A stretch of 64,000 nt of DNA from Myxococcota bacterium (GCA_030749415.1 JASMKC010000023.1:2833-66832), one strand, 5' to 3'; shown: positions 35,270 to 58,463, numbered from the stretch's first letter. Numbers and translations are program-made. The notes: generated by a model not told the origin, from the letters alone.

Positions 35270-35291
35270 GAAGTGTCCACTCCTTGCCGAG

Positions 35292-36782
35292 TCACCAATT
35301 GAGGCGGGACTCACCGCTCAGGTGCCAGGAAAGCGTGAATTGAAGGCGGTTATTCAGACCGCTGCGACTTGTGTTGTTGGAGGCGGCGCTCCCACGCGTG
35401 ATCTGTCGGTTGCCGAACAGGTACTCCACGCCGATATCCAGGGGTGGGATGGGGCTCCAGATCAGGTTCGCCGAGACGTAGTGTGCACGCTTGTAGATGC
35501 CCTGGTCTTCAACCGGTTGGAAGGAAGGATCGATGAATTCGGTATCAGCCCAGGTGTAGCCGTAGGTCGCCGTCGAGCGCAGCGCCTCGCGCCAGAAGTG
35601 CGTGTAGACGGCCCAGAAGGAAGCAGCCCTCACGGGTCGCAGGCTGGGGTTGGACACCGATATGGGAGCGGCGTCGAGGCCCTGGCCCTGGAGATCGTCG
35701 ATGTACGCCCCGAGCGCCTGACCACCGACCGCGCCCAGCGCGAAGCTGTCTTTTCCGGTCGTGGGCAAATAGATCTGGAGGGTGAGTCCCCAGCCGTCCA
35801 CGCTCTCGCGCATGCCGTTTCCGCTCACTTCGAGGTGGCGGTAGAGGCCCTGGAGCCAGATCGCGGTTCCGCGCGCATTCTCGTACGCGAGCCCACCGAC
35901 GACCGAGGGAACCCGATTTAGATCGTTGAATTGTGTGTCGGGAAGGGTGATGTCGCCCGGCTCATCCTCTATGCCGATGAGTAGATACAGATTCTCTGGT
36001 GAGCCGATCAGCTGATGTATCGGCACCTTCAGCCGGGCTTGGATTGGCCGGTTCTCCGGGATTGCGTTGGGGCCCTCGAAGTCGAGTGTGTGCGGGATCG
36101 TCGCTCTATTCAGAAAAAGCGTGTAGTCCAGGCCCGCTTCCAGCCAGCCCCAGCGCCCATACAGCTGGTAGACCTGGAAGGGCGCGATGCCCGTGATCTT
36201 TCCGGTCAGGTTGAACTTGGTAAAGACCTCGAAGTCACCCCAGGGCGTGGGCATTTGGAGCCAACCGTCGAGGTGACTCTGCTGGATGCTCAAACCGGTC
36301 CGGTTGTCGCGATTTGCTGCGGCGGAGCCACGCACCGGGATATTGGCCGTTACGAACCAGTTCTCGAATCCGCTTCCGGGTGTGAGGCCCACCGAATTGA
36401 AGTCGTGAATGGTGTCGAGCTGGACGGTCGTACTGAAGCCAACTCGGACAGACTTCCAAAAGGGGTTCGCTGGAGCTGGGTGTTGACTCCCGAGCCCATA
36501 GACGTCCGACCCGGAAGCATCCGAGGTGTCTGCGGCTGGATCGGAGACGCTCTCCTGGATCTCCGGAGCCTTCGGTGCCTCTCTCGAGGATCCCACTGTT
36601 TCGATCGAAGCCACATTCGGCTCGTCTTTCGAAGCAATCTCCGCTTCGAGCTGCTCGACCCGCGCTTCCAGGCGTTGAACGGCTTCTCGCAGGCTATCGA
36701 TTTCGGCAACCGACGTGTTCTCGCCCGAAGCCGTCATCGCGGGGATGAGGAAGATGAGGAGAAAGAGAAGCACGCCTCGCAA
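35292..36782 (-). CDS. outer-membrane porin with an N-terminal coiled coil (DcaP-like candidate)
   Basis: Signal peptide (M)RGVLLFLLIFLIPAMTASG if TTG 36782 is the start (the ORF extends to 36914). Coiled coil EIDSLREAVQRLEARVEQLEAEI. Beta-barrel-like C-terminus ending ...ESRLNW. Confidence 0.65.
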   Translation of the reverse strand: MRGVLLFLLIFLIPAMTASGENTSVAEIDSLREAVQRLEARVEQLEAEIASKDEPNVASIETVGSSREAPKAPEIQESVSDPAADTSDASGSDVYGLGSQHPAPANPFWKSVRVGFSTTVQLDTIHDFNSVGLTPGSGFENWFVTANIPVRGSAAANRDNRTGLSIQQSHLDGWLQMPTPWGDFEVFTKFNLTGKITGIAPFQVYQLYGRWGWLEAGLDYTLFLNRATIPHTLDFEGPNAIPENRPIQARLKVPIHQLIGSPENLYLLIGIEDEPGDITLPDTQFNDLNRVPSVVGGLAYENARGTAIWLQGLYRHLEVSGNGMRESVDGWGLTLQIYLPTTGKDSFALGAVGGQALGAYIDDLQGQGLDAAPISVSNPSLRPVRAASFWAVYTHFWREALRSTATYGYTWADTEFIDPSFQPVEDQGIYKRAHYVSANLIWSPIPPLDIGVEYLFGNRQITRGSAASNNTSRSGLNNRLQFTLSWHLSGESRLNW

Positions 36783-40105: not shown

Positions 40106-40744
40106 CTAGGCGACGCCCAGCAGGTCCCTGGCGAGGGTGACGCCGTCCTTCGCCTGCGCGCCCCAGCCATCTGCCCCCTCTTTCTCTGCCCACGCTTTCG
40201 TCGTGACGGCACCGCCGACGATGACCGGGTACTTCTCGCGCACTTCGAGCTCCTTCAATATGCCGATGAGCTCGGTGAACTTCTCCATCGCGGGAGCGAA
40301 GACCACGGACACGGCGATCATGTCCGCTCCCTCCTTCTCGGCGGTCTCGTAGAAGTCGAACGGCGAGTTCTTCTCGCCGATGTCGATGACGTCGAAGCCT
40401 CCGATCGAGAGCAGGGTGCTCACCAGGTTCTTTCCGATGTTGTGCTGGCTGAGCATGGTTCCGAGTACGATCTTCTTGTCGTGCTTGGCGCTCTGGCCTT
40501 CGGGGAAGGCCTCCTGGATGAGGGGGATGCAGGCCTTGGCAGTGACGCCGCCCTTGACGAGATCCAGGACGATCGCCTGCTTGGCGGCAAATCGATCCCC
40601 CACTTCGGTGAGGCCGTCCATGATGCCAGATTCCAGGATCTCCATCGGGTCGAGGCCGGCGGCGAGCAGCTCGCGGGTCATCTCCGCTGCCTCTTCCGGC
40701 TTGGTCTCGCTCACCAGCCGTCTCAGGTCTTCGATCGTCGGCAT
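40106..40744 (-). CDS. corrinoid (B12-binding) protein with an atypical Co-ligand motif
   Basis: ATG 40744 follows GGAGGAG. It has a B12-cap plus Rossmann-like layout (KIVLGTMLSQHNIGKNLV...DVIDIG...ADMIAVSV...VIVGGA). SQHNIG (40433-40450) stands where DxHxxG is expected. Confidence 0.8.
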   Translation of the reverse strand: MPTIEDLRRLVSETKPEEAAEMTRELLAAGLDPMEILESGIMDGLTEVGDRFAAKQAIVLDLVKGGVTAKACIPLIQEAFPEGQSAKHDKKIVLGTMLSQHNIGKNLVSTLLSIGGFDVIDIGEKNSPFDFYETAEKEGADMIAVSVVFAPAMEKFTELIGILKELEVREKYPVIVGGAVTTKAWAEKEGADGWGAQAKDGVTLARDLLGVA

Positions 40745-40791
40745 TGCTTCTCCTCCCGGGGAGCTTGGGCCCGCCCCGTGGATCGTGGGCG

Positions 40792-42147
40792 TTAGTCGTC
40801 CCACGACGGGTAGTCGAGGCCCCACTCCTTGAAGATCCGTGTGAACTTCTTGTAATGGTCGACGAATTCCGGAATGGGCCTCAGCGTACTCATGTCGTAC
40901 AGCTTGTCGATCGTGGCCGCGGGCGGCGCCGGTGCACATTCGGCGGCGTTGGCCTTCTTGATGATCTCGATGCCTTCGCGCGGGCTGAGTGCGGCCGCCG
41001 CACGAGACAGCTCACCAGCCCAGCGGGCCTCCAGCCCGGTCGACCCTCCGGACAGCCACGTCGCTTCCATTCCCGAGATGCACGCATTGATGATGCAGAC
41101 GGCTGTGCCGTACCAGGAGCTGTCGCTCATGGGTCCACTGGGGTCGGCGGTGCCTCCCATCGTCAGCCATGGCAGCCGGAGATTCTGCTCAGCCGCAAGG
41201 GCAGCAGCCGAGTTGCTCCATGTGATGTCGTTTCCCGAGTAGACGCCGTGGACCGATACCGACATCCCCTGGGTGAGCGTCCCGCCCGAGTAGGCGAGCA
41301 TGCCCAGGGTATGCGCGATGATCTCGATCGCGCCTTGTTCGGGACCGGTCAGGTAGGCGTACAGCGTGGGAGAGGAGCTCATCCACGGCTCGAGTCCTTG
41401 CTGCTCCGCGAAGAAGGTGAGATTGAAGCGGTCGTAGTTGACCCGCATGTCCATCAAGATCTGGACGGGAAGCGTGCAGTTGTACTTGTTGTAGAGGCCC
41501 GAGTTGAACGTGCTCATCAGGGTAATGGGCGTCGTGGCACTCATCGGGATGCCGAAGAAGAGACCGGGCCGGCCCGCCCATGTCGCCACGTCGTTCATGA
41601 TCCGGGCTTCCGTCAGGCAGACGAGCGTGTGCGCGGGGGTCTCCGCGATGTTCTTCGTCTTGCCGACGCCGAAGAGCGGCAGCGGAAACACGCCATCGCA
41701 GGTGGGTTCCCGAACGACGGTCAGGGCATGGGCCCGGTAGATATCGACATCCCTCGTGATCGTGCCCGCGGGAGGCCAACAGTAGGGGTGCTTTGCATCA
41801 CCCGGCGCCCTGGGAGTGAGCCTGATCTCGTCCCGACCCTGCCCGAACGTGACCTCGTGTCTCGCTGTGGCGATGGCTTCCTTGATCTCTTCCTCGGTGA
41901 ACTTGATGATTCGTTTCGTGTCCTGGCAATAGAGCCCGAGCTCGAGCAGGAGCTCCATGCCGGCCTGGAAGACGGCATCCGCCATGTCCGGGTCGGCCAT
42001 GACCGGCTCGTCGGGATCGGCTTCGATCTTGTACTTGGCCTGAACGGACGCGAGAACGGACGGGAGTAACTCGGTTTCGAACTTCTCCTCCGCCATGATT
42101 GGCCCGGTGGTCGACCGCTGAATCGCTTCCCAGAAAAGCCTACCCAT
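40792..42147 (-). CDS. MtmB-family (monomethylamine methyltransferase-like) protein, non-pyrrolysine
   Basis: Blocks match my recollection of archaeal MtmB: AGMELLLELGLYCQDTKRIIKFTEEEI, WAGRPG, GLEARWAGELSRA. The 451-codon ORF has no in-frame TAG. Confidence 0.75.
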   Translation of the reverse strand: MGRLFWEAIQRSTTGPIMAEEKFETELLPSVLASVQAKYKIEADPDEPVMADPDMADAVFQAGMELLLELGLYCQDTKRIIKFTEEEIKEAIATARHEVTFGQGRDEIRLTPRAPGDAKHPYCWPPAGTITRDVDIYRAHALTVVREPTCDGVFPLPLFGVGKTKNIAETPAHTLVCLTEARIMNDVATWAGRPGLFFGIPMSATTPITLMSTFNSGLYNKYNCTLPVQILMDMRVNYDRFNLTFFAEQQGLEPWMSSSPTLYAYLTGPEQGAIEIIAHTLGMLAYSGGTLTQGMSVSVHGVYSGNDITWSNSAAALAAEQNLRLPWLTMGGTADPSGPMSDSSWYGTAVCIINACISGMEATWLSGGSTGLEARWAGELSRAAAALSPREGIEIIKKANAAECAPAPPAATIDKLYDMSTLRPIPEFVDHYKKFTRIFKEWGLDYPSWDD

Positions 42148-42192
42148 GGTTCTGACCCTTGAATGTCAGTGGTTGCTGCGAGACGGTGATGC

Positions 42193-43161
42193 CTAACCCT
42201 GCTCGTAGCATTCGCTCTCGCGAATGGAGCGCATCAGCGCTGCACATTCCTGCCCGATGTACCGCATGTGTTGAGACGAGAGCCACGGCATGATGTCTAT
42301 GATGTACCAGGAGAGGTCTTCTGGATTTGTGAAGGTCTCCTCCCATTGAATCGCACTCGCGTCGTGGTTGAGAAGCATCGCCCTGGCCTTGCCGCCGTCG
42401 TTTCCGAACAGGAAGATGCCCGAGGCGTCTTCCTGAAGGGGCAGGGGGCGTTTGAACGATTCGTCCAACACGCGCAGTGCGCTGGCCCAATCGCGATCGC
42501 AGAGATGAGCCGAGTGGATGACGAAGGTCGCGCTCCCCACGTCGATGCCGAGCCGTGCGGCGGCCTCCCGCTGCAGGCGAGTGAGCGACAGCGCCTCGAG
42601 CGGCCAAGCCGCGTAGACGTCCATGCTGCGAATCACGAACGAGCCGAATAGCGCACCTTCGATGACGTTGAAGGTGGCGGAGAGGATCGACGGCGTATTC
42701 TGAGGCGAGCCCATCTCCTGCGGGTCGATCAGCACCAGCGTGCCCGAGCGCGTGTCGTGGGATTGTTTCAGTCGCTCGATCGCCGCGTCGAACTGGCTGA
42801 GCCCGTTCCAGTCGTGCAGGCGCTGGCCGAGCGCCGGGCCCGAGTCGCCGGTGGGAGACGTGGACGTGAACCGTCGGTAGTGCTCGTCGACGTCGGCGCC
42901 ACTGAGGTCGAGGTAAGGCGCGAGTTCCTCCTCCTCGGCGGCTAGCTGGATCGTCACGATCGCGTTCAATGCCTCGGCGATCCTGTCGCCCTGGCCGGTC
43001 GTCTTGTCGGTGCCGATCCGCATGACCAGATTGAGGAGCTGCAGCCAGCCGTCCGCCACGTCGTTGCTGAACATGGGAAAGGTGGTCTTGCGAGAGAGGA
43101 AGCGTTTGCGTTCCGGAATCTGCTCCATTTCGTTTCTCCCGATCACCGGCTTCGACGGCAT
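42193..43161 (-). CDS. thymidylate-synthase-fold protein lacking the catalytic Cys, with a C-terminal extension
   Basis: ThyA-like order of motifs: LGQRLHDW, HDTRSGTLVLIDP, TPSILSATFNV (in place of PCH), VIRSMDVYAAWPLEA (RSxD), VIHSAHLCDRD. About 90 extra C-terminal aa. Confidence 0.6.
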   Translation of the reverse strand: MPSKPVIGRNEMEQIPERKRFLSRKTTFPMFSNDVADGWLQLLNLVMRIGTDKTTGQGDRIAEALNAIVTIQLAAEEEELAPYLDLSGADVDEHYRRFTSTSPTGDSGPALGQRLHDWNGLSQFDAAIERLKQSHDTRSGTLVLIDPQEMGSPQNTPSILSATFNVIEGALFGSFVIRSMDVYAAWPLEALSLTRLQREAAARLGIDVGSATFVIHSAHLCDRDWASALRVLDESFKRPLPLQEDASGIFLFGNDGGKARAMLLNHDASAIQWEETFTNPEDLSWYIIDIMPWLSSQHMRYIGQECAALMRSIRESECYEQG

Positions 43162-43167
43162 CGCGCT

Positions 43168-43827
43168 TTAGCGGTTGGGGGCGCAGAAGGTGCGAATGAA
43201 CTGACTCTCGAGTCGTTGCAGGATGACTTCGTGCGGGGTCTCGCCGCCGTGCTCGAGCCAGTAGGCGAGCTCCACTTGCTTGAGTGCCAGCATCTTGCGC
43301 ACCAGCAGGTCGGGGTCCTCGTCGACGTAGATCCCCTCCGCGATGCCGCGGGCAAATAGGTCCCGGGGAATCGGGACGCCTTGCTTCCAGATCTCGCTCT
43401 CGCCCGCCGACTTCGGGAAGCCGGACGCCCAGCCGTAGCCGTCGCGACAGCACATGCGCAGGAAGTCGGGCCTCTCGAGGAAGTAGGCGGCCCCCCGCTT
43501 GAGAACGGAGAGATGGCTCTCGAGTGTGTCCGAGTGGGCGTCTCGCGCCTCGCGGATGCAATCCAGGAACTCGCGCATGCGCGTCCGGTGGATGCTGTTG
43601 AAGAGCGACTCCTTGCCATCGATCACCCCGTAGAGCGTGCCCAGCGAGATGCCGGCTTCGGCCGCGATCTCGCGCATGCGGGAGCGATCTGCCCCCTTCT
43701 GGGCGAAGACGCGCTCGGCGGCTTCGGTGATGACCTGCTGGTAGAGGGTGCGACGCTCCTCTTTCATCCGGCGCTGGATGGCGCTGGGGCGGGTGCGGCG
43801 CGCGCTCTGGCGGTCGGGAGAGGGCAT
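43168..43827 (-). CDS. TetR-family transcriptional regulator
   Basis: HTH region AAERVFAQKGADRSRMREIAAEAGISLGTLYGVI. Its stop is 6 nt before the next gene. Confidence 0.85.
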   Translation of the reverse strand: MPSPDRQSARRTRPSAIQRRMKEERRTLYQQVITEAAERVFAQKGADRSRMREIAAEAGISLGTLYGVIDGKESLFNSIHRTRMREFLDCIREARDAHSDTLESHLSVLKRGAAYFLERPDFLRMCCRDGYGWASGFPKSAGESEIWKQGVPIPRDLFARGIAEGIYVDEDPDLLVRKMLALKQVELAYWLEHGGETPHEVILQRLESQFIRTFCAPNR

Positions 43828-43839
43828 GTCTGGTAACCA

Positions 43840-43861
43840 CTATTCTATTAAATCAGAATAG
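43840..43861. promoter_or_regulatory. candidate TetR operator palindrome
   Basis: CTATTCT-attaaatc-AGAATAG (7-bp arms) in an AT-rich stretch, 13 nt upstream of the tetR start. Confidence 0.4.
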
Positions 43862-43941
43862 CGGTTTCAAGCAGCATGGGATGTGCCGCGATGCCGGTGC
43901 CCGCGGGCGAAATGCTGTGGCGGCCTCGAGTGGTGCCGGAT

Positions 43942-44440
43942 TCACTGTGTTATTCGGACGCCGTCCTCGTCTTCGGAGCGCACCCAGACGCCCACGAACT
44001 CGAGTTCCGGGTGCCCCAGGATCGCGCGCAACGCGAAGGCTCCGACGTTTCCCGTACTCCGCTGGATCACGCGGTAGCTCGCGGGCGTCTCCTTCCAGAC
44101 CAGGCGCATGATCTCGAGCTGCTCGTCCAGCCGGCGGCCGCGCTCCTCGTGTGGGATCCCGAAGGCTTCGTACTCCTCGGCCTGCCAGCTGCCGATCGGA
44201 AGGATCGTCACGCGACCCCCGGAGACGAGGTCGAGGGTCGCCCACTGCTTGGCGTTCAGGAGCGGGTGACGCAGTGGTGCGAGCGTCGCAGCCGCGTTCA
44301 ATCGAATCGTCTTCGTCACCGCGGCGATCGCCGACAGCATCACGATCTGGCTCGGCATGTGCTGGTCCGGTGCCGCGCCTGCTGGGTCGTGGCACCGAGG
44401 GTGCAAGAGTGCGATTTTGTCGCTGCGCGCAATGCGCGGG
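43942..44440 (-). pseudogene. chimeric remnant: internal LLM-oxidoreductase fragment fused in frame to the N-terminus of a Rossmann (DapB-like / amine-dehydrogenase-like) protein
   Basis: ...MLSAIAAVTKTIRLNAAATLAPLRHPLLNAKQWATLDLVSGGRVTILPIG... (LLM core) runs directly into VIQRSTGNVGAFALRAILGHPELEFVGVWV, followed by a stop. Neither part is full length. Confidence 0.5.
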
Positions 44441-44505
44441 AAAGGCTGCTTCAGGGGAGCGTGGCAATAGGACGCCTTTTCCCCGGCAGGCACGGGTGGG
44501 CAGAG

Positions 44506-45684
44506 ATGGAGAAAGCACGGACGGTCGATCTCGCGTTCGCCGAGCTGCCCGGTCACGAGATGTTCGAGCTCCTCGAGGAGCTGCGGGGCGATGGTCCGCT
44601 GGCCCGCGCGACGTTCGCCGGTGCGCCCTGCTTTCTCACCACCACCCACGGCCTTCTGCTCGAGGGCTTCATCGACGCCGCGAAGTTCCCGCCGGCCCGC
44701 CTCTACCAGAACAGCATCGCCCGGGTGATCGGCCCCAACTTCCAGTCGATGGAAGGGGCCAGGCACACCCTGTACCGGCGGCTCGCCACCCCGGCATTTC
44801 GCTCGCGGGCAGTGGAACGCTACGAGCGCGAGGGGATGGCGGAGCTGGCTCACGAGCTGCTGGAGCGTCTGGACGGGCGCGGCGAGGCCGATCTCGCGAG
44901 TGCGTTCACGCACCGCTTCCCGTTCCTGGTGCTCTGCCGCCTGGTCGGGATTCCCCGGGACCGGGAAGACGAGTTCCACCAATGGGCGGCGGAGATGGTG
45001 ACTCCGCCAAACGTGCCGCTCGAGGTCTGCCGCCGCGCCGCCGCCGAGTTCACGCGCTACCTCGCGCCCACCTTGGCCGAGCGCCGCCGCGAGCCCCGCA
45101 GCGACGTGATCTCCGAACTGATCGCCGCCGAGGTGGAGGGACGCCACCTCACGGACGAGGAGATCTCCTCCCACGTGAAGCTCATGTTTTCCGCCGGTGC
45201 AACGACGACGTGCGATGGCATCGGAAACCTGCTGCACGCATTGCTCTCACACTCCGGCGCCTGGGAGCAGGTGGTCGACGATCCCTCCGTCCGCGCCACG
45301 GCCGTTCACGAGTCGCTGCGGTGGCAGACGCCGGTGCCCAACCTTCCACGCATCTCGGCCGAGGAGACCGTCGAGTTCGGCGGAAGGGAGATCCCGCCGA
45401 AGAGCTTCGTCCTCTTCAGCATGGCGTCGGCGAATCGGGATCCCGCGGTCTACGACGATCCCCACCGCTTCGACCCGGCCCGCAGCTCGCGCGATATCCT
45501 GAGTTTCGGGCGTGGCGAGCGCTCCTGTCCCGGCATGCACCTGGCGAAGAAGGAACTCTCGATCGCCCTCGACGTGCTGATCGACCGTTTCCCGAAGCTG
45601 CGGCTGCAGGGCGACCCCCAGGCCTCGGCTCCGACCGGTGCCATCATCCGCGGTCCGAAGACCCTGCCCGTCGCACTCCAGTAG
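44506..45684 (+). CDS. cytochrome P450
   Basis: ATG 44506. I-helix FSAGATTT, ESLRWQTP (ExxR), haem loop FGRGERSCPGMHLA. Confidence 0.9.
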   Translation: MEKARTVDLAFAELPGHEMFELLEELRGDGPLARATFAGAPCFLTTTHGLLLEGFIDAAKFPPARLYQNSIARVIGPNFQSMEGARHTLYRRLATPAFRSRAVERYEREGMAELAHELLERLDGRGEADLASAFTHRFPFLVLCRLVGIPRDREDEFHQWAAEMVTPPNVPLEVCRRAAAEFTRYLAPTLAERRREPRSDVISELIAAEVEGRHLTDEEISSHVKLMFSAGATTTCDGIGNLLHALLSHSGAWEQVVDDPSVRATAVHESLRWQTPVPNLPRISAEETVEFGGREIPPKSFVLFSMASANRDPAVYDDPHRFDPARSSRDILSFGRGERSCPGMHLAKKELSIALDVLIDRFPKLRLQGDPQASAPTGAIIRGPKTLPVALQ

Positions 45685-45764
45685 GGTCGCACCGGCGAGT
45701 GGGGCCGAGCGTTCGGCGGCAGACGAGCCTGCCTCGCCCGGCCTGCCCCGGGGACCCGTCAGGT

Positions 45765-45904
45765 GAGCGCAGGAAGTTCAAGCGTTGGTCCCGCGACGGC
45801 GAGTACGGGAACAGCGACGGCGAGTACGGGAAGTTCAAGCTGCGTTTTCGCTGGGTCCGATCAGCAGACATTCTGTCCAATGGGGACCGGGTCCCAACAC
45901 GGGG
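45765..45904 (+). repeat. interspersed 5' module (45822-45904) preceded by a partial duplicate of its own 5' end (45765-45793) and a 17-bp local duplication
   Basis: gagcgcaggaagttcaagcgttggtcccg, then cgacggcgagtacggga twice (45794-45810, 45815-45831), then agttcaagctgcgttttcgctgggtccgatcagcagacattctgtccaatggggaccgggtcccaacacgggg. Confidence 0.8.
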
Positions 45905-46097
45905 CGGTGATGTTTTCGACCGCGGTGATGCTTCTCAACCTCGAGGCGCCGCCGCCGCTCGTGCCGGATGCGGCCTCCCCGGAATCCCGCGGGCCCGACT
46001 CGAAGCCGCGGCCGCACGCCGCCGGATAGCGCTACGTTGACGGATCCGGCAGGAGGAGGCTCGGCAGCCATGTCAGGAGGCGCAGAGGCGGCAGGCC

Positions 46098-46350
46098 GGC
46101 TCGACTGCATCTTCGTCAACGCCGGAATCGGCGGTGCGCCATCGGCTAGGTCATCGATAGCGGGGCGGAAGACTGGGACTTCACTTTCGGTGTCCTGGTC
46201 CGCGGCGCCTTCCCGGGCATCGAGCACGTGTCCCAGGGCATGCAGGCCCAAGGCGGGGGGGGGCGCGAGCATCAACACGGCATCGGTCGCGGGTGTGACC
46301 GGCGTCTGCCCGCCCGTCGACGGCGGCCTCACGAGTCTCGGCGTCGACAT
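46098..46350 (+). pseudogene. decayed short-chain dehydrogenase/reductase (SDR)
   Basis: SDR motifs sit in two different frames: LDCIFVNAGIGG and GGGASINTASVAG in one, EDWDFTFGVLVRGAFPGIEHVSQGMQAQGGGG in another. The frames join at a G9 run (46255-46263). The N-terminal Rossmann region and the YxxxK region are missing. VDGGLT follows directly. Confidence 0.55.
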
Positions 46351-46463
46351 CCGCCGGACCATGGGCCGGGACGAAGCCGCCGCCTCGCCCCTCGCGGGCA
46401 TCACGGCCATCGACTACGGCAGCACCGGCGCGCCGCCCAAGATCCGGCCCGGAAGTAGCCGCT

Positions 46464-47108
46464 TTGAGCGCTGAAGACCGCAAGCTGATCGACGCAATCG
46501 TCGGAATGCGTGAGCAGGAGGCCGTCGAGCTCGCGACCGCGCGACTCGAGGCCGCCGGCGAGCCCCTCGAGATCCTGGATCTCTGCAAGCAGGCGATGGA
46601 CGTCGTCGGCCGGAATTTCGAAGAGGGTGAGTTCTTCATCCCCGAGCTGGTGATGGCCGGCGAGATCCTCTCGCAGATTTCGGCCGTGGTGAAGCCGCAC
46701 ATCGCGGTGGGCGCCAAGGCGCCGGGAGAGCGGCGAGCAACGGTACTGCTCGGCACTGTGCACGGAGACATCCACGACATCGGCAAGAACATCGTGGGCT
46801 TCATGCTCGATGTGAACGACTTCGAGGTCTGCGACCTGGGCGTCGATGTCACGCCGGAGCGCTTCATCGAGGCGATCGAGCGGCATGCCCCCGACGTGGT
46901 TGCGCTGAGCGGCTTCCTGACGCTCTCTTTCGGCTCGATGAAGCGCACCATCGAGGCGATCGCAGAGGCCGGGCTTCGCGACGACGTGAAGATCATGATC
47001 GGCGGCGGCCAGGTGGACGAGGCGATCCTCGAGTTCACCGGCGCCGATTCCTTTGGCGCCAATGCGATGAGCGCAGTCAATCTCTGCCGGCAGTGGGCGG
47101 ACGCGTGA
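46464..47108 (+). CDS. corrinoid (B12-binding) protein, canonical
   Basis: Cap domain FEEGEFFIPELVMAG. Canonical GTVHGDIHDIGKNIV. DVVALSGFLT and IMIGGG also present. TTG start. Confidence 0.9.
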   Translation: MSAEDRKLIDAIVGMREQEAVELATARLEAAGEPLEILDLCKQAMDVVGRNFEEGEFFIPELVMAGEILSQISAVVKPHIAVGAKAPGERRATVLLGTVHGDIHDIGKNIVGFMLDVNDFEVCDLGVDVTPERFIEAIERHAPDVVALSGFLTLSFGSMKRTIEAIAEAGLRDDVKIMIGGGQVDEAILEFTGADSFGANAMSAVNLCRQWADA

Positions 47109-48355
47109 ACGAGACCGGCACCGAACTCTTCGAGGAACGCTCGCAGCGGATTCGAGACGCCGTCGAGCTACGGGAGCCCGATCGCGTTCCCTTCTCCACG
47201 ATCTGGCACTTCTGGCCGGCGCGTTACGCCGGGATGACCTGCCGGGAGGCAATGTACGAGTACGATCGCTACAGCGCCGCGATGCGCAAGGCCGTGCTCG
47301 ATCTCGAGCCCGACTCCTTCGCGTTCATGCAGCCCGCCGTGAGCCTCGGGCCGGCGTTCGAGCAGCTGGGTTTCCGCATGCTCGAGTGGCCCGGTCATGG
47401 TGTCGATTCGGATTCCACGTACCAGTACATCGACCGCGAGTACATGAAGGCGGACGAGTACGACGACTTCCTCTTCGATCCCACGGGCTTCTTCCTGAGG
47501 AAGTACCTGCCGAGAGTCGCCGACGCCTTCGAGGGGTTCGCGGGCTTTCCGGACTTCCCCGCCTCTCCCTACTTTGGGCTCGTGCACGCGGCACCTGCGT
47601 TCGCGACGCCCGGGATGGCCGAGAGCTTCGAGCGGCTGGCGGGCGCCGGGCGGGAGATGATGCAGATGGTCGGGTCGGGCCTGCCGGTGGTCCAGGAGCT
47701 GGCCGAGCTCGGCTTCCCCACGGTCTTCGGCGGCTTCTCCATGGCGCCCTACGACTACATTGCCGACTACATGCGCGGCTCTCGCGGCGCCATGCTCGAC
47801 ATGTTCCGCCATGAAGAGAAGATGATCGCGGCGATCGAGAAGGCGCGCGCCATCATCGTTCGAGGCACGATCGAGCGCCCCTCCCCACTCCCCTCGAAGA
47901 CCGTGTTCATTCCGCTCCACTGGGGACTCGACGGATTCATGTCGGATGAGCAGTTTGCCAAGTTCTACTGGCCGCAGCTGCGCGAACTCCTGACGGCACT
48001 CATCGACGCCGATCTGACCCCGCTGGTGCTCTGGGAGGGGAACTGCGAATCTCGCCTCGAGAGAATTGCGGATATCCCGCCCGGCAAGGCCATCTACTTC
48101 TTCGAGCGCACCGATCCCTTCAAGGCGAAGGCTGTACTCGGCGACACCGTTTGCCTGCGGGGCTTTGTGCCGGCATCGATCCTGACTACCGGCAAGCCCG
48201 CCGAGGTCGAGGACTACTGCAAGCGGCTGATCGATGGCTGCGCGCCCGGGGGTGGGCTGATCGTCGATGGCTCGATCGGCATCCCCGACGACGCGCGGAT
48301 CGAGAACGTCTTTGCGATGCGCGACGCCGTCTGGAACTACGGACAGGCCCGGTAG
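47105..48355 (+). CDS. uroporphyrinogen-decarboxylase (UroD/MtaA/CmuA)-family corrinoid methyltransferase
   Basis: The GTG overlaps the upstream stop (GTGA). UroD-family TIM-barrel-like pattern over 416 aa (DRVPFST..., VFIPLHWGLDGF, GGGLIVDGSIGIP). Sits in a corrinoid operon. Confidence 0.75.
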   Translation: MNETGTELFEERSQRIRDAVELREPDRVPFSTIWHFWPARYAGMTCREAMYEYDRYSAAMRKAVLDLEPDSFAFMQPAVSLGPAFEQLGFRMLEWPGHGVDSDSTYQYIDREYMKADEYDDFLFDPTGFFLRKYLPRVADAFEGFAGFPDFPASPYFGLVHAAPAFATPGMAESFERLAGAGREMMQMVGSGLPVVQELAELGFPTVFGGFSMAPYDYIADYMRGSRGAMLDMFRHEEKMIAAIEKARAIIVRGTIERPSPLPSKTVFIPLHWGLDGFMSDEQFAKFYWPQLRELLTALIDADLTPLVLWEGNCESRLERIADIPPGKAIYFFERTDPFKAKAVLGDTVCLRGFVPASILTTGKPAEVEDYCKRLIDGCAPGGGLIVDGSIGIPDDARIENVFAMRDAVWNYGQAR

Positions 48356-48420
48356 CCGCACGTGACCGTGCACTCCTTGGCGAATCGGCGGACCCAGAGC
48401 GGGGAGCGAAAGGAGAACCG

Positions 48421-49131
48421 GTGCCGGTCGTGAGCGACGTCCCGCTCGAGATCTCGCTGGCCGAGCTGAAACGGCTGCGCACGCTCCACGGAAAGGACGG
48501 GCTGCACCCACGGCTTCGCGCGCTGCTTCCGGAGATCCTCGCCGAGGCGGTCGGGCAGAAGGTGCTCCAGCCCGCGGTCGCCTGGGAGTCGCGACGCCTT
48601 CTGGAAGCGACCGGCACTCGCGTTCGACTCGCCGGCGGGCCGGAGCTGGCGCGGGCGAAGGCCGTCGTCGAGTTGCTGGGTGAAGCGGACGAACTCGTCG
48701 CGGCGGTCGGCAGCATCGGCCCGGAACTCGATCTCATGGCTCGTGACTGGTCTGCGAGCGGACGTGAGCTGGACGCCTTCGTGCTCGGTGAGATCGGCAA
48801 TCTGGCCATCGGAAAGCTCGCCGATCGCATGCCGGAGATCATCTCGGAGTGGGCTGCCGGCCGCGGACTCGAAGCGAGCGGCGCACTCAGTCCGGGTGGA
48901 ACCGGAGTCGATCTCTCCGACCAGCGCGTCGTGGTCGAGCTTGCGAACGCCCAGCGAATCGGCGTCGATCTCACCAGCGGCCAAATGCTCGTACCGCTCA
49001 AGTCGATGTCCCTGTTGATTGGCCTGGGGCACGGGCTCCCGACGTGGACCCACGCGCAGGCGTGTGATCTCTGCGCTTCGCGCGAGCACTGTCGCCTGCG
49101 CCGGTCGAACTCGGAGCCCGCCGTCGCGTAG
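48421..49131 (+). CDS. MetH activation-domain-like protein (B12 methyltransferase reactivation/accessory)
   Basis: GTG 48421 follows AGGAGA. SPGGTGVDLSDQRVVVELANAQRIGVDLTSGQMLVPLKSMSLLIGLG matches the activation-domain core pattern. C-terminal CDLCASREHC. Confidence 0.6.
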   Translation: MPVVSDVPLEISLAELKRLRTLHGKDGLHPRLRALLPEILAEAVGQKVLQPAVAWESRRLLEATGTRVRLAGGPELARAKAVVELLGEADELVAAVGSIGPELDLMARDWSASGRELDAFVLGEIGNLAIGKLADRMPEIISEWAAGRGLEASGALSPGGTGVDLSDQRVVVELANAQRIGVDLTSGQMLVPLKSMSLLIGLGHGLPTWTHAQACDLCASREHCRLRRSNSEPAVA

Positions 49132-49157
49132 CGGGGGTCTGGCATTATGGTCACACG

Positions 49158-50672
49158 GTGAACGACCCGGTCCGGATCGACCTGCACCCCCTGGGTCGCA
49201 GCATTCAGGTGGAGCGAGGCACCAGCCTGCGCGATGTCCTCTACGCCTATGGCGTCGAGTTCCCGTGTGGAGGACAGGGGCGCTGCCGGCGCTGCCGGGT
49301 CCAGCTGCTGGAGGGCACGCTGCCCATCGGCGTCGAGGAGAGCGCCATCCTCTCCGACCGCGAGAAGGAGGAGGGCTGGCGGCTGGCCTGCCGCTGCCGG
49401 GTGGAGGCGCCGGTCACGCTGCAGGTGGAGCAGTTCCGGGCCCCGATTCTGGTGGATCACACGCCCTTCGCCTTCCAGCCGCGACCGGGCCATGGCGTGG
49501 CCGTGGACCTGGGGACCACCACCCTGGTGGCGCAGCTCCTCGATCTCGAGACCGGCAGGGTGCTGGCGGCCCAGACCGCACTCAACCCCCAGGGCGTCTC
49601 CGGCAGCGACATCATGCACCGCATCCAGTTCGCCCTGAACGAAGACGGGCGCAAGCAGCTGATGCAGCTGGTGCGCGACGCCGTGGCCGGGCTGGTGCGC
49701 CGCGCGGTGGCGAGCGCAGGGCTCCGCAGCGCCCCGTTGGAGACGCTGGTGCTGGTGGGAAATACGGCGATGCACCACCTCTTCTGCGGGCTTGACGTAG
49801 CGCCGTTGGCCGCCGTCCCGTTCGAGTCCGAGAGGATCGGCCTCCAGGAGTTCCGGGCCGACGAGATCGGCTGGCAGCTTCGGGGCAACCCGCGGATCCG
49901 CTTCCTGCCCTGTCTGGGAGGCTTCGTGGGCAGCGACCTGCTGGCCGGCGTGCTCGCCACCCGCCTGCACGAGCGCGATGAGCTCGCGGTGCTCGTAGAC
50001 CTGGGAACCAACGGCGAGATCGTGGCGGGGAATGCGCAGCGCATGCTCTGCACCTCCACCGCGGCGGGTCCCGCCTTCGAGGCCGGCGGAATCGAGATGG
50101 GAATGCAGGCCACGACCGGCGCCATCGACGGGGTGACGGCGGGCAACGGCGTCCTGGAGTGCCGCGTGCTGGGCGGCGGCGAGGCGCGCGGAATCTGTGG
50201 CAGCGGGTTGGTGGACGCGGTGGCCGCCGGCCTGGACCTGGGCTGGATCGAGCCCGGCGGTCGGCTTGCGGACGGCCGCAAGATTCTCCAGTTGGACGGC
50301 AGCGTGCATTTGACCCAGGGCGATATCCGCCAGTTGCAGCTGGCCAAGGGAGCCATCGCCGCGGGACTGAAAATCCTCCTCGAGCGCCTGGGCGCGGCAG
50401 CCGGGACCGCACCCCGGGTGAACCTGGCCGGGGCGTTCGGAAACTACGTGAACCGCGACAGCGCCCGGCGCATCGGCCTGCTCGACTACCCCGGCGCGAA
50501 CGTGGAGCCCGTGGGGAATACGGCGCTGCTAGGCGCGAAGTTGGCGCTATTCGCACCGGAGCGGGAGGCCCAGGAGATCTCGCAGCTGAGCGCGCGCATC
50601 GAGCACGTCTCGCTGGCGGCGGATCCGAGCTTCCAGAACGTCTTCATCGGCGAGTTGCGCTTCCCCGGCTGA
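49158..50672 (+). CDS. RACo-type reductive activator of corrinoid proteins (2Fe-2S ferredoxin plus ASKHA ATPase)
   Basis: N-terminal CGGQGRCRRC...C cluster. ASKHA motifs AVDLGTTTLVAQL and VLVDLGTNGEIV. ICGSGL also present. Confidence 0.85.
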   Translation: MNDPVRIDLHPLGRSIQVERGTSLRDVLYAYGVEFPCGGQGRCRRCRVQLLEGTLPIGVEESAILSDREKEEGWRLACRCRVEAPVTLQVEQFRAPILVDHTPFAFQPRPGHGVAVDLGTTTLVAQLLDLETGRVLAAQTALNPQGVSGSDIMHRIQFALNEDGRKQLMQLVRDAVAGLVRRAVASAGLRSAPLETLVLVGNTAMHHLFCGLDVAPLAAVPFESERIGLQEFRADEIGWQLRGNPRIRFLPCLGGFVGSDLLAGVLATRLHERDELAVLVDLGTNGEIVAGNAQRMLCTSTAAGPAFEAGGIEMGMQATTGAIDGVTAGNGVLECRVLGGGEARGICGSGLVDAVAAGLDLGWIEPGGRLADGRKILQLDGSVHLTQGDIRQLQLAKGAIAAGLKILLERLGAAAGTAPRVNLAGAFGNYVNRDSARRIGLLDYPGANVEPVGNTALLGAKLALFAPEREAQEISQLSARIEHVSLAADPSFQNVFIGELRFPG

Positions 50673-50716: not shown

Positions 50717-50810
50717 GAGCACCGGAAGCCCGAGCCGCGTTTCCCCGGGGTCCGGTCAGCAGACATTCTGTCCAATAGGGACCGGGGAGGGGATCCGGCC
50801 CAATACGAGG
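50717..50810 (+). repeat. copy of the interspersed 5' module
   Basis: gagcaccggaagcccgagccgcgtttccccggggtccggtcagcagacattctgtccaatagggaccggggaggggatccggcccaatacgagg, starting 45 nt after the upstream stop. Confidence 0.85.
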
Positions 50811-50865: not shown

Positions 50866-51432
50866 TCAGCGGGTCGAGGTGAGAGCCGCCACGATTGCGG
50901 CGGCGAGCTGCTCTGCCAGCTGCTTCTCGGCGCGCACCAGTGCCGCATAGCCCTCGCTCTCGAGCGGTATCGACCGCGCAAAGCGGTACTCCGTCGGGGC
51001 CGAGGCTGCACCCGACGTGATCTGGAAGCTCGCCACCAGCACTGCGTTGCCGGACATCGTGCCGTGAAACTGCTCCACGAAGACATCGACGCTCCGCTCC
51101 CACTGCGGCACCGAGCGGGTCACCATGCCGACCTCTTCGCCGAGTGCGTCAGCGATGGCGGCGCGCAGGAAGAGGGTCAACCCAACGTCGAGTGGCTCGG
51201 CCCATAAATGACTCCGTGCCGGACGCACCTCGTTCTCTGTGGTTTCGACCGCGAGGCCGGGCTGATTGAGATAGGCGGCGACCAGAACTCGACGCAGCCC
51301 AACGCGCGACCTGCTGGGGAGCACCTCTGCGGAGGGTGGGGCGTCGTAGCGGAGCAGGTACTCGGTCTTCGGGGGCGGCGCGCTGGCGCACGCCACCGCA
51401 AATACCAGCAGCAATCCGGGGACAGCTCTCAT
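50866..51432 (-). CDS. pqiC: PqiC/YmbA-like lipoprotein
   Basis: Lipobox LLVFAVAC. The start overlaps the pqiB stop (ATGA). It is the third gene of a pqi-type operon. Confidence 0.7.
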   Translation of the reverse strand: MRAVPGLLLVFAVACASAPPPKTEYLLRYDAPPSAEVLPSRSRVGLRRVLVAAYLNQPGLAVETTENEVRPARSHLWAEPLDVGLTLFLRAAIADALGEEVGMVTRSVPQWERSVDVFVEQFHGTMSGNAVLVASFQITSGAASAPTEYRFARSIPLESEGYAALVRAEKQLAEQLAAAIVAALTSTR

Positions 51433-56619: not shown

Positions 56620-58314
56620 TCAGTGGCTCTCGCGCCAGGGGTCCCAGGCCTCATCGAGCTCCGGGAGCAGGTCCCGGTCGCCGAATACGCGTCCCGCCAG
56701 GACCGCCTTCAGCAGGTCGGCCTCCAGAATCTCACCGGCCGTGGCCACGCCGCCTCGCATTACCCCGGCGATTCCGGGTCCCGAGGGCGTGCTGGCTCCG
56801 CACAGGAAGAGGCCGGGAATCTCGGTGCGCGGCCCCACGCGCAGGGGACCCGCCTGGTTGCAGGACATCTCGATCCCGTAGGAGGTGCCACCCGTGGAAC
56901 GCGTGAAGCGCTCCTGGCTCACGGGGGTTGCCGCCTCTTTCCAGGCGATGTGCTCGCGCAGATCGGGGATCACGAGCTGGGCGGCGTCGATGAGATGCTC
57001 CATCACGTCCGTCTTGCGCCGGCGGTATTCGGGGTCGCGGTGATAGCGACCGCCCTCGGCCGGACCCTGCTCCACGTTCCAGATCGAGTAGCTGCGCGGC
57101 ACCAGGGTCATGATCTGCAGGTTCGTGAAGCCCTCGGGCGCGAGCCGGGTGCAGGTCGGGTCCTTCAGGCTCGCCGCCGTCACGTAGGCCATGGCGTCTT
57201 CCGAGATCTTGTCGGCGTCGAGGTCATCGTAGACCGCCTCGATGTCGTAGTTGCCCCAGATGAAGTGGTTGCTGTTGGGCATGCCACGGGCGCGGAGGTC
57301 GACGTCGAGACCCACGTAGACGCAGAAGAGGGGCATGGCCATGCGAAGGGACTCGATTCGTTCGGCCGTTTCCGGGCAGAGGTGCTCGCGTCCCACCAGT
57401 TCGGCGAACGTCCGCTTCACGTCTGCGTTGGAGACGACGACCGGGGCATCGATCTCCTGGGGCGCGCGGCTCTTCTTGCCCGCGACGACCCCGACGACGC
57501 GGCCGTCCTCGATGCGGATCCGGTGGACGGGGCTCTGGGTGCGCACCTCCCCGCCGTAGGCCCGGATCGCCTCGATGAGCCTGCCCGCAATCACCTGCCC
57601 CCCGCCCTCGGGATAGCAGGCGCCGCGCAGGAAGTGATCGGCGAGCCCGGCCGCCATTGCGACCGGTGTGTCGGAGGGGCGCACCGCGTAGCAGCCCTGC
57701 TCGCCCAGGATCACCGCGGCGGCGCGATGCGAGAGCCCTTTCTCGGTGAAGAGTTCGGTCACCGGCCGCAGCCCCCACTCCAAGAAGCCCGGCGCTTCTT
57801 CCGCGACATCTTCCATGGCGATCTCTTCGCGCTGCAGGTCGCGCCCGGCCCGAGCCACATCCTGCATCACGTCGAGGACCGACGTGAGCGCATCGCGCTC
57901 GGCCGGGAATGTCTCGAGCAGCCGGGCCCGGTAGCGATCCCAACCGAATGGAACCCGGAACGAGAGATCCGGGAAGTGCAGGGTGGAGTAGCCATCCGAA
58001 TCGAGCGGACGGAACACCACGCGCTCGGCGAGGCCCAGTCCCCCGAGAACCGCCGTGATCACACCGTCGCGGCCGCACTCGCCGATGTAATGGATGCCTA
58101 CGTCGAACTCGTACTCGCGACCCTTGTGCTTGCGCCGGAACACCTGGGAGTTGCCACCCGCCACGTAGTGCGCTTCCAGAACCAGGGTGCGCCGACCGGC
58201 GGCGCAGAGATATGCGGCCGTCGCCAGCCCGCCGAGTCCCGATCCGATTACAATGGCGTCCCAGCTCTCGCGTTCGTCACGCTTGACATCGGTCACACGA
58301 TCCTCCGTTCCCAT
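56620..58314 (-). CDS. CrtI-like (phytoene desaturase-family) NAD(P)/FAD oxidoreductase
   Basis: ATG 58314. Motifs DAIVIGSGLGGLATAAYL and C-terminal GLFLCGASTPSGPGIAGVMRGG. Confidence 0.85.
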   Translation of the reverse strand: MGTEDRVTDVKRDERESWDAIVIGSGLGGLATAAYLCAAGRRTLVLEAHYVAGGNSQVFRRKHKGREYEFDVGIHYIGECGRDGVITAVLGGLGLAERVVFRPLDSDGYSTLHFPDLSFRVPFGWDRYRARLLETFPAERDALTSVLDVMQDVARAGRDLQREEIAMEDVAEEAPGFLEWGLRPVTELFTEKGLSHRAAAVILGEQGCYAVRPSDTPVAMAAGLADHFLRGACYPEGGGQVIAGRLIEAIRAYGGEVRTQSPVHRIRIEDGRVVGVVAGKKSRAPQEIDAPVVVSNADVKRTFAELVGREHLCPETAERIESLRMAMPLFCVYVGLDVDLRARGMPNSNHFIWGNYDIEAVYDDLDADKISEDAMAYVTAASLKDPTCTRLAPEGFTNLQIMTLVPRSYSIWNVEQGPAEGGRYHRDPEYRRRKTDVMEHLIDAAQLVIPDLREHIAWKEAATPVSQERFTRSTGGTSYGIEMSCNQAGPLRVGPRTEIPGLFLCGASTPSGPGIAGVMRGGVATAGEILEADLLKAVLAGRVFGDRDLLPELDEAWDPWRESH

Positions 58315-58463
58315 TCTGTTCACCAGGAGCGAGCAGCGTGCCACGCTTCGGTCCGAAGGGTACACCCCGCGCTTCGCGGCTTGGAAGTTCGAGCCAGGTT
58401 TCAATGCCAAACTTTACCAGAGGCCGCTTGAAACCAGCCGCCGAGGTCCGCCGCAGCACCGCG

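Follow-up and report, generated by a model that had tools for sequence, protein, structure and literature searches.

In three-component corrinoid methyltransferase systems, a methyl group moves from a substrate methyltransferase (MT1) to a small corrinoid protein (CoP) and from there to an acceptor-side methyltransferase (MT2). To our knowledge, the acceptor-side enzymes come in two kinds, namely, pterin-binding TIM barrels (MeTr, MetH, and MtrH) and UroD-type thiol methylases. Here, we analyze a gene cluster at positions 40106 to 50672 of a 64,000-nucleotide (nt) stretch of DNA from a Myxococcota bacterium (GCA_030749415.1, JASMKC010000023.1:2833-66832), which we call the window. The minus strand of this cluster carries a quartet of genes coding for a TetR-family regulator, a protein derived from thymidylate synthase (ThyA-like), a nonpyrrolysine relative of the methyltransferase MtmB (MtmB-like), and a corrinoid protein (CoP1). 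We propose the ThyA-derived protein as a candidate methyl-corrinoid:pterin methyltransferase, that is, as the MT2 of this system.

Two described systems are among the closest to the quartet. First, MtgB/C/D/E of Ruegeria pomeroyi links glycine betaine demethylation to methionine synthesis in aerobic marine Roseobacters and is assisted by MetF2, MtgE, RamA, and a DUF1638 protein (PMC12478193). Second, MtqB/MtqC/MtqA of Methanococcoides methylutens is a tetramethylammonium/choline:coenzyme M (CoM) system. MtqB, which demethylates tetramethylammonium and choline, is the only nonpyrrolysine MtmB homolog with a demonstrated function, and the others have been described as being of unknown function (PMC13044021). 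MtmB-type genes have also been noted in Binatia, at the level of annotation only (PMC11264602). We found no literature linking a thymidylate synthase-like or DUF4346 protein with corrinoid methyl transfer.

An initial annotation of the window, made from the sequence alone, reported neither a pterin-binding nor a Zn/CoM-type methyltransferase and left the terminal acceptor step unassigned. The absence appears to hold, as no canonical enzyme of these types was found in the window. Searches by tblastn, together with Pfam annotation of the cluster genes and 30 further open reading frames (ORFs), detected no PF00809, MtrH, S-methyl_trans, or methylenetetrahydrofolate reductase (MTHFR) gene in the 64 kb, and no canonical pterin methyltransferase lies just outside the cluster. 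The acceptor step, however, does have a specific candidate, which is the ThyA-fold protein itself.

This candidate is brought out by a comparison with a sister clade of nonpyrrolysine MtmB homologs (47 to 49% identity), which was recovered in a metagenome scan and has neither a ThyA-like gene nor a UroD homolog nearby. In the three sister-clade loci covered by a Pfam scan (L089:760-5362, L091:603-5350, and L093:318-5350), the CoP gene is flanked by an MtrH-family gene (PF02007; 268 to 296 bits) and by a gene for an FAD-binding flavoprotein (FAD_binding_2). PF02007 occurs only in the sister-clade loci. The two clades therefore share the MT1 and the carrier, and their third gene is MtrH in one and ThyA-like in the other. 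MtrH-family enzymes are the canonical methylcorrinoid:pterin methyltransferases, both in the Mtr complex and as bacterial MtgA/MtqA-type enzymes, and ThyA is by ancestry a folate-binding fold.

About 65 independent loci carry the quartet. They come from metagenome-assembled genomes (MAGs) of Gammaproteobacteria, Binatia, Myxococcota, and Dehalococcoidia, and their flanks are unrelated. When GTDB species genomes were scanned with a ThyA-like profile, 25 loci were recovered, all from MAGs, with labels of Gammaproteobacteria (including Steroidobacteraceae and Halieaceae), Binatia, Myxococcota, "Deltaproteobacteria," Dehalococcoidia, and a single "Spirochaetaceae" bin. The ThyA-like, MtmB-like, and CoP genes are adjacent in all 22 of the 22 loci with enough sequence, and tetR is usually upstream. 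An MtmB-like profile run against metagenome contigs found 65 loci, with a ThyA-like gene adjacent in 41 and with contigs that were too short in 18. Among informative metagenome loci, ThyA-like adjoins MtmB-like in 41/42, and the clear exception (L056) is also devoid of a corrinoid protein and has only a stub of tetR. Co-conservation of the quartet, which had been suggested as a check on the initial annotation, is thus strong across genomes, and apart from tetR, no partner other than the ThyA-like gene is conserved. No PF00809 homolog was detected in any quartet locus by tblastn with two PF00809 proteins at an E value of ≤1e-3, in a scan that spanned about 0.93 Mb of loci altogether.

Genes of one-carbon metabolism accompany the quartet in several of these loci. 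MTHFR is nearby in L019 and L011, and MetK and S-adenosylhomocysteine hydrolase (SAHH) are nearby in L019, L032, L076, L101, and L106. The triad of ThyA-like, MtmB-like, and CoP genes lies between MetK and SAHH in L076, after SAHH-MetK in L101 and L106, and after SAHH/MTHFR/MetK in L019. A homocysteine S-methyltransferase (PF02574; 213 bits) stands beside the quartet in L043, and a RACo-type reductive activase stands directly beside it in L032, together with a homolog of a 236-amino-acid (aa) protein that is discussed below. These accessory genes mirror the helpers of Ruegeria MtgB/C/D/E; only the pterin-binding MtgD never appears, while the ThyA-like gene always does.

The ThyA-like gene of the window (42193-43161, minus strand) encodes a short form of 311 to 322 aa with a C-terminal PF14251 domain. 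The start codon is more likely the ATG at 43128, which is preceded by GGGAGA and used by one gene caller; this start gives a protein of 311 aa and a first quartet gap of 39 nt. Pfam recognizes Thymidylat_synt (PF00303) at 34.4 bits (cutoff, 24.3) and PF14251 ("PterinBD-DUF4346") at 33.3 bits, and NCBIfam TIGR03283 matches at 88 bits, under its cutoff of 174.55. In agreement with these assignments, an AlphaFold2 (AF2) model of a long homolog, P0006 (predicted local distance difference test score [pLDDT], 82), matched ThyA, the CMP hydroxymethylase MilA, and a phage dCMP hydroxylase in Foldseek with E values of about 1e-12.

Residue conservation indicates that the chemistry of thymidylate synthase has been given up. 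Cys146 (E. coli numbering) is replaced by Ser in the window protein and by Ser, Asp, Ala, Gly, and other residues across the MtmB-linked clade, where the position is unconstrained, whereas it is Cys in 24/24 of the three-domain relatives outside this clade. Residues for dUMP recognition have been lost as well (Ser replaces Arg127, Glu or Gln replaces Asn177, and Arg126 is partly kept). Arg166, Ser167, and the folate-contacting Asp169 are retained. The best-conserved part of the protein is the PF14251 domain, which is almost invariant in the clade and includes dozens of invariant residues. The ratio of nonsynonymous to synonymous substitutions (dN/dS) for the ThyA-like gene is 0.22 against its closest relative, L024 (range, 0.18 to 0.28), and the four quartet genes compared with the nearest relative give 0.11 to 0.28. 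These ratios reject pseudogene status for the short ThyA-like gene and indicate purifying selection, as would befit a functional, neofunctionalized former thymidylate synthase.

The ancestry of this protein can be traced further. A profile search of 1.84 billion representative sequences returned 176 proteins at an E value of <1e-30, and most of the full-length matches listed span three domains, which are an MtrA-like N-terminal domain, ThyA, and PF14251. These relatives include DPANN archaeal proteins annotated as thymidylate synthase that have an intact catalytic set (Pro-Cys146, Arg126/127, Arg166-Ser167, Asp169, and Asn177). In the two contexts examined for Cys-bearing relatives (P0134, L036:3918-5408; P0163, L038:7001-8422), the gene adjoins dCTP deaminase or is near ribonucleotide reductase, and the context of one three-domain relative resembles a reduced bacterial genome. 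Judging by their residues and neighbors, the Cys-bearing proteins are ordinary thymidylate synthases with unexplained extra domains, and the ThyA-like protein of the quartet descends from three-domain enzymes of this kind. We found no description in the literature of the MtrA-like, ThyA, and PF14251 architecture, which P0134 and P0163 share with about 170 further representatives.

Most ThyA-like homologs are 460 to 480 aa long and carry the MtrA-like N-domain, which the window form lacks; weak antisense matches at 51184-51309 were judged to be due to chance. Homology of this domain to MtrA is real (PF04208 at up to 28.9 bits; PDB 5L8X at an E value of 5e-6), but the "GH" stretch of MtrA, whose His is the cobalt ligand, falls in a 2-residue deletion, and cobamide binding by the N-domain was rejected. 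A neighbor-joining tree indicates that the domain has been lost at least four times independently, and short forms have been kept in at least four lineages.

We assign the ThyA-like protein to the acceptor step because of the exchange with MtrH in the sister clade, the lack of a canonical alternative, the accessory genes, and a folate-binding ancestry in which Asp169 has been kept. Under this assignment, the nonpyrrolysine MtmB-like TIM barrel would take a methyl group from the donor and pass it to Co(I) of CoP1, a carrier of the SxHxxG type. The ThyA-derived/PF14251 protein would then move the methyl group from methyl-Co(III) to tetrahydrofolate, standing in for an MtrH/MeTr-type enzyme, and methyl-tetrahydrofolate would enter the methionine/S-adenosylmethionine (SAM) cycle or be oxidized through MTHFR. 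Together, the four genes (module 1) may constitute a self-contained unit that is probably repressed by its own TetR. Every catalytic activity of the quartet is inferred, as are its donor, its acceptor, and the direction of transfer; what was observed directly is which domains are present, that thymidylate synthase catalytic residues have been lost, that purifying selection acts, that the genes are co-conserved, and that MtrH and ThyA-like are exchanged between the sister clades. That the ThyA-like protein replaces the pterin methyltransferase and carries the methyl group from Co(III) to tetrahydrofolate strikes us as an evenly balanced proposition. The wider proposal reaches a little further and is put forward tentatively, as slightly short of evenly balanced. 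It holds that ThyA-derived/PF14251 proteins are an unrecognized class of methylcobamide:tetrahydrofolate methyltransferase that arose from a three-domain thymidylate synthase and displaced MtrH-type enzymes in nonpyrrolysine MtmB systems, which would harvest methyl groups from methylated amines in widespread uncultured, probably aerobic, marine and sediment bacteria.

Several points weigh against an acceptor-side role. In thymidylate synthase, the dUMP pocket, toward which the N5/C11 face of the folate is turned, does not have room for a corrin ring. The retained phosphate-binding residues (Arg166, Ser167, and, in part, Arg126) hint at continued binding of a phosphorylated ligand. The "pterin" in the name of PF14251 is unconfirmed by literature, sequence, or fold: we found no literature mention of DUF4346 or PF14251; a profile of the domain has no sequence match in PDB (best E value, 0.23); and the isolated domain, when modeled with AF2 (pLDDT, 90), gave no Foldseek match in PDB at an E value of <1e-3, the top results being ribosome assembly factors and ASKHA subdomains with low TM-scores. 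Our scans covered the window and the quartet loci, and a canonical MT2 could sit elsewhere in these genomes. Finally, erosion of the system has gone furthest in the window copy, which is without the ThyA-like N-domain and has lost two neighboring genes (LLM and S-methyl_trans; see below).

Some of these points would also fit an accessory function, in which the ThyA-like/PF14251 protein serves as a scaffold, as a regulator that binds folate or nucleotides, or as a factor for the protection or reactivation of the CoP. The discharge of methyl-Co(III) would then fall to the product of a gene at another site, such as the pterin module of MetH, an MtgD-like protein, or a homocysteine S-methyltransferase of the L043 type. 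The partly degenerate active site, in which the former nucleophile position varies freely, would be expected of such a protein; the phosphate-binding residues might serve in ligand sensing, and the repeated loss of the N-domain marks that domain as dispensable. The components of the Ruegeria system are scattered across the genome (PMC12478193), and the S-methyl_trans protein beside the quartet in L043 could accept the methyl group directly. Such an S-methyl_trans gene, however, is present in only 1 of about 90 loci, whereas the ThyA-like gene is the one constant partner besides tetR and takes the position that MtrH has in the sister clade. The invariance of PF14251 also fits catalysis or tight ligand binding better than it fits an accessory role, which we therefore consider unlikely, if by no means negligible.

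The presumed MT1 of the quartet is the MtmB-like protein (40792-42147, minus strand; 451 aa), which matches PF05369 at 156.3 bits (cutoff, 25) over positions 4 to 450 of 450 and Methanosarcina barkeri MtmB (PDB 1L2Q) at an E value of 1.7e-31. Its designation as nonpyrrolysine in the initial annotation was correct. The gene contains no internal stop codon, in-frame TAG included, and Pyl202 of the M. barkeri protein aligns to Gly199, in the motif GLFFGIP. This glycine and the aromatic residue before it are kept in all quartet loci and in the sister clade, the residues preceding the glycine being FF, FL, or WF. On the basis of the loss of pyrrolysine, these aromatic residues, and the precedent of MtqB, our best guess is that the methyl donor is a quaternary or otherwise methylated amine.

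Separately, Cys150 and a CxxxC pair near positions 351 to 356 of the MtmB-like protein are specific to the clade and nearly invariant within it, and M. barkeri MtmB and part of the sister clade lack them. Judged from the sequence, these residues may make up a metal or redox site; a clade-wide Zn(Cys)3 site was rejected because the cysteines are not kept in the sister clade. Tandem MtmB-like duplicates occur in L019 (9462-16411) and L075 (2559-5386), and L019, which is from Binatia, has a third, distant MtmB homolog (29% identity) with its own CoP and TetR. These additional copies suggest substrate diversification.

The methyl carrier of the quartet, CoP1 (40106-40744, minus strand; 212 aa), has B12-binding_2 and B12-binding domains and is closest to MtbC/MtgC-like families in NCBIfam, at about 119 bits and below their cutoffs. 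It had been called atypical, and rightly so, as SQHNIG replaces the DxHxxG motif in 31/31 loci. This SxHxxG form retains the His and Gly and has Ser in place of Asp. The first gene of the quartet (43168-43827, minus strand) encodes the TetR-family regulator (TetR_N; 43.9 bits).

With these components in view, the triad could also be read in reverse, or as a split methionine synthase, with methyl-tetrahydrofolate on the ThyA-like protein as the methyl donor, the CoP as the carrier, and an acceptor, either homocysteine or an amine, on the MtmB-like barrel. The placement of the triad by MetK, SAHH, and MTHFR in L076, L101, L106, and L019 would fit this arrangement, as would the clade-specific cysteines of the MtmB-like protein, and MtgD has been proposed to be bidirectional in Ruegeria (PMC12478193). 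Nevertheless, MtmB and MtqB, as the characterized members of the MtmB family, work on the donor side of methyl transfer (PMC13044021), and tandem MtmB-like paralogs are typical of substrate-specific donor methyltransferases. The extra cysteines are not conserved in the sister clade, as noted above. Moreover, the TetR repressor and a patchy distribution reminiscent of horizontal gene transfer point to an inducible catabolic unit, and an E-value scan of 39.5 to 51.5 kb against Rfam found no riboswitch, including those for cobalamin and SAM. We regard a reversed triad as improbable.

The plus strand of the cluster carries a second operon (module 2). It begins with a corrinoid protein, CoP2 (46464-47108; 214 aa; B12-binding_2 and B12-binding), that has a canonical DIHDIG motif and is pyl_corrinoid/MtgC-like in NCBIfam. 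The next gene (47105-48355) encodes a 416-aa UroD-family protein (PF01208; 53 bits), the presumed MT1 of this module, in which the expected position of the Zn motif HxC of MtaA/MtbA-type enzymes reads PLHWG by eye. The third product (48421-49131; 236 aa) has no significant Pfam match (PF02965 at an E value of 0.38 for the single sequence), yet its description as MetH-activation-like is supported by a profile of four orthologs that matches the activation-domain protein of methionine synthase from Thermotoga maritima (PDB 1J6R; E value, 2.7e-8). An invariant C-terminal CxxCx5C in this protein and its orthologs is a possible metal or Fe-S site, and we know of no such motif in the classical MetH activation domain. 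The last gene (49158-50672) encodes a RACo-type reductive activase of 504 aa (Fer2, 42.8 bits; Raco_middle, 153.7 bits; RACo_C_ter, 205.5 bits), which is AcsV-like in NCBIfam at 297 bits, below the cutoff.

Module 2 belongs to an abundant family of its own. Its UroD protein has more than 3,800 homologs, largely in Rhodospirillales, Betaproteobacteria, and other aerobes, and the order of CoP, UroD, an activation-like protein of about 220 to 240 aa, and RACo is the same in the other three loci that we examined. L041 and L042, which are the more distant copies, add a PF00809 methyltransferase and MTHFR and are near VanA-type or Amidohydro_2 genes; the closest relative (L040; 77% identity) has an S-methyl_trans gene instead. 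A pterin methyltransferase and MTHFR of its own may have been lost from the window's module 2 or may never have belonged to it. Membership in the type 1 mlp clusters, which require Mlp2 and Mlp3 paralogs and are found only in obligate anaerobes (Kountz and Balskus, PMC10418091), was rejected, as the only UroD gene of the window comes from another family, one associated with aerobes. The plus-strand operon is a copy of a widespread aerobic-proteobacterial module that is separate from the quartet. We treat the two operons as separate modules because the quartet is conserved without the UroD operon and because the UroD operon has an abundant family of its own. Within the window, the RACo and activation-like proteins of module 2 would probably keep both corrinoid proteins reduced.

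The initial annotation had implied that both operons, arranged around a cytochrome P450 gene, form one system. Such a single pathway, sharing carriers, activase, and the ThyA-like acceptor enzyme, has in its favor the physical adjacency of the genes and a mutual complementation, since module 2 is without the PF00809 methyltransferase and MTHFR of L041 and L042 and the quartet is without an activase, which module 2 supplies; L032, too, pairs the quartet with RACo and a homolog of the 236-aa protein. This reading did not survive the comparison of loci. Essentially everywhere else, the quartet stands alone, with no UroD/RACo operon beside it, as UroD and CoP2 are never near it in about 90 of them and RACo is near it once, in L032, and L040 pairs module 2 with S-methyl_trans rather than with a ThyA-like gene. 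The junctions of module 2 in the window, which are described next, likewise suggest that the two operons came together recently, and a shared pathway is accordingly quite improbable.

A 70-nt direct repeat brackets the plus-strand operon, with one copy just after the P450 stop codon (45822-45891, plus strand) and the other just after the RACo stop codon (50717-50786, plus strand). The copies are 84% identical and have an internal hairpin-like core; the window contains these 2 matches, against 0 expected, and there was no third copy in the window and no Rfam match. Between the P450 and CoP2 genes lies what looks like a frameshifted remnant of a short-chain dehydrogenase (SDR) gene (about 46040-46460, plus strand), read directly from the sequence and its ORF translations; a 191-aa antisense ORF at this remnant has no Pfam match. 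The repeat and the pseudogene debris on both sides of module 2 suggest recent juxtaposition. The spacer between P450 and CoP2 (45685-46463) also varies in length, from 780 nt in the window to 864 nt in L002 and 922 nt in L001, in otherwise near-identical metagenome copies, and within it a 19-nt unit is repeated at 21-nt spacing (45793-45832).

Upstream of the quartet, a sigma-70-like promoter (TTGAAA, a spacer of 17 nt, and TAGAAT; 43830-43871, minus strand) ends 14 nt before the ATG of tetR. It is the only such site in 39.9 to 46.5 kb, where shuffled sequences give a mean of 0.5, and it is overlapped by an inverted repeat with 17-nt arms. This repeat is a candidate TetR operator, and its position would be consistent with autorepression. 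Beyond it lies a remnant of a luciferase-like monooxygenase (LLM) gene (44074-44373, minus strand; Pfam Bac_luciferase), which covers residues 72 to 171 of 312 of a TIGR03619-type F420/LLM oxidoreductase and is 93% identical to the full-length LLM of L018. The TIGR03619 match of LLM is above the cutoff, at 171 to 177 bits. A role as a Mer-like methylene-pterin reductase was considered; the protein is a TIGR03619 member, and its similarity to Mer (E value, 1e-11) is at the level of the family only.

LLM proteins of this type accompany the quartet in L012, L018, L019, and L043. The closest relative with a long-form ThyA-like protein is L043, whose MtmB-like protein is 87% identical to that of the window and whose gene order is LLM, S-methyl_trans (these two at L043:3-1653), tetR, long ThyA-like, MtmB-like, CoP, and a gene for a 150-aa protein. 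Relative to this locus, the window copy is without the 3' end of LLM, the S-methyl_trans gene, and the N-domain of the ThyA-like protein. It is very unlikely that the window cluster is a decaying remnant without function, since these losses and the SDR-like pseudogene within the cluster are outweighed by nine intact ORFs, by the dN/dS values of the quartet against its nearest relative, by the identical copies of the cluster in many metagenome assemblies, and by the maintenance of short ThyA-like forms in several lineages.

The 150-aa protein, which has no Pfam or NCBIfam match, recurs by the quartet in L018 (10121-10573), L012 (7843-8316), L043 (6175-6627), L024 (6862-7146), L080, and L088. 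In L104 (4001-7506), the triad genes match as frameshifted pieces, which reflects either a pseudogenized triad or poor assembly.

The remaining features of the window are in keeping with the initial annotation, whose gene calls and family assignments were all borne out by Pfam and profile hidden Markov models, including the placement of the MtmB-like and ThyA-fold proteins. The nine cluster genes lie at the coordinates originally given, each with one coding frame by codon-position GC content and with coding-type GC content at third positions (0.72 to 0.90); the GC content of the window is 0.58 to 0.69. Gaps of 6, 45, and 47 nt on the minus strand and the GTGA overlap in the plus-strand operon were reproduced. 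The same contig is present in many metagenome assemblies, with identical copies in 142 blocks of the index. The P450 gene (44506-45684, plus strand; 392 aa; PF00067, 105 bits) is divergent from tetR and was rejected as a conserved partner of the quartet, as P450 genes, with 28 to 38% identity, turn up in 5/28 of the clustered loci and, from the later scan, in L053.

The surroundings had been called oxygenase rich and an unusual setting for an MtmB relative. The first point is correct, for the window contains the LLM gene, a gene for a flavin-containing/Baeyer-Villiger monooxygenase-like protein, and a second P450 gene; the second point has lost some of its force, because corrinoid demethylation in aerobes is less unusual since the description of Ruegeria MtgBCDE (PMC12478193). 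MlaD, PqiA, and porin-like proteins encoded in the window point to a Gram-negative host. Amine-related genes are present too, coding for a flavin amine oxidase (56620-58410, minus strand) and for an Orn/Lys/Arg decarboxylase with an amino acid permease (32969-35314, minus strand), and no link between them and the methyltransferase cluster was established. An ORF at 61564-63816 (plus strand) encodes a flavoenzyme with Old Yellow Enzyme and Pyr_redox_2 domains; its nearest NCBIfam families are BaiCD/FadH-like, with scores below the cutoffs, and its identification as trimethylamine dehydrogenase was rejected.

If the proposed acceptor role is true, a thymidylate synthase-derived protein represents a third, unrelated solution on the acceptor side of corrinoid methyl transfer and a clear case of an enzyme of nucleotide metabolism recruited into one-carbon transfer. 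It would also give a functional context to a large clade of nonpyrrolysine MtmB homologs. This clade occurs in abundant uncultured marine and sediment lineages, including Binatia, Myxococcota, Steroidobacteraceae/Halieaceae-like Gammaproteobacteria, and Dehalococcoidia, and the idea bears on the turnover of methylated amines and osmolytes and on the demand for B12 in the ocean. The hypothesis can be tested directly with three recombinant proteins. Apart from this, the thymidylate synthases with three domains that are encoded by DPANN archaea and by other uncultured genomes merit study of their own.

We agree with the initial annotation that the quartet matches no characterized system. It is a variant of the three-component corrinoid methyltransferase theme, and its third component is a new enzyme class if our assignment is right. 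Ruegeria MtgBCDE resembles it in corrinoid methyl transfer in marine bacteria that are aerobic, probably so for the quartet, and in its reliance on a donor-specific TIM-barrel methyltransferase and a small corrinoid protein, and MTHFR (MetF2), a homocysteine-binding S-methyl_trans protein, and an activase of the RamA/RACo type recur around the quartet in other loci. The differences are that the donor enzyme of the quartet is from the MtmB family (PF05369) and not from MttB/MtgB; that the quartet has no pterin-binding MtgD (of the MetH module 1 type) and always carries, as its third gene, one for a ThyA-derived/PF14251 protein; that the CoP has an SxHxxG motif; and that the genes are tightly clustered under TetR. 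MtqBCA, which we compared by description only, likewise places a nonpyrrolysine MtmB homolog beside a corrinoid protein; the clade of MtqB has conserved Met/Cys and aromatic residues in its pocket. The MtqBCA system, however, is from a methanogen and uses a UroD-family CoM methylase as the acceptor enzyme, whereas the hosts of the quartet are bacteria and the quartet has no CoM-type enzyme.

The three-domain ThyA proteins of DPANN archaea and uncultured genomes share with the quartet protein the same fold, the same domain order, and Arg166, Ser167, and Asp169. The MtmB-linked clade differs from them in the loss of Cys146, in the changes of Arg127 to Ser and of Asn177 to Glu or Gln, in the frequent loss of the N-domain, and in a context of corrinoid methyl transfer rather than nucleotide metabolism. 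Clusters of the cobalamin O-demethylase type are similar to module 2, which has a CoP, a UroD-family MT1, and RACo, and to which L041 and L042 add PF00809 and MTHFR. In contrast to those clusters, the window's module 2 has neither MT2 nor MTHFR, belongs to a family with aerobic, Proteobacteria-like hosts, and includes the extra MetH-activation-like protein with CxxCx5C.

Finally, the canonical MtrH/MeTr systems, exemplified by MtgBCA of Desulfitobacterium and the MtqA-dependent system of Eubacterium limosum, follow the same logic of MT1 to CoP to MT2 as we propose for the quartet. The sister clade has exactly this layout, with PF02007 in the third position, and in the window clade the PF02007/PF00809 gene is replaced by the gene for the ThyA-derived protein.

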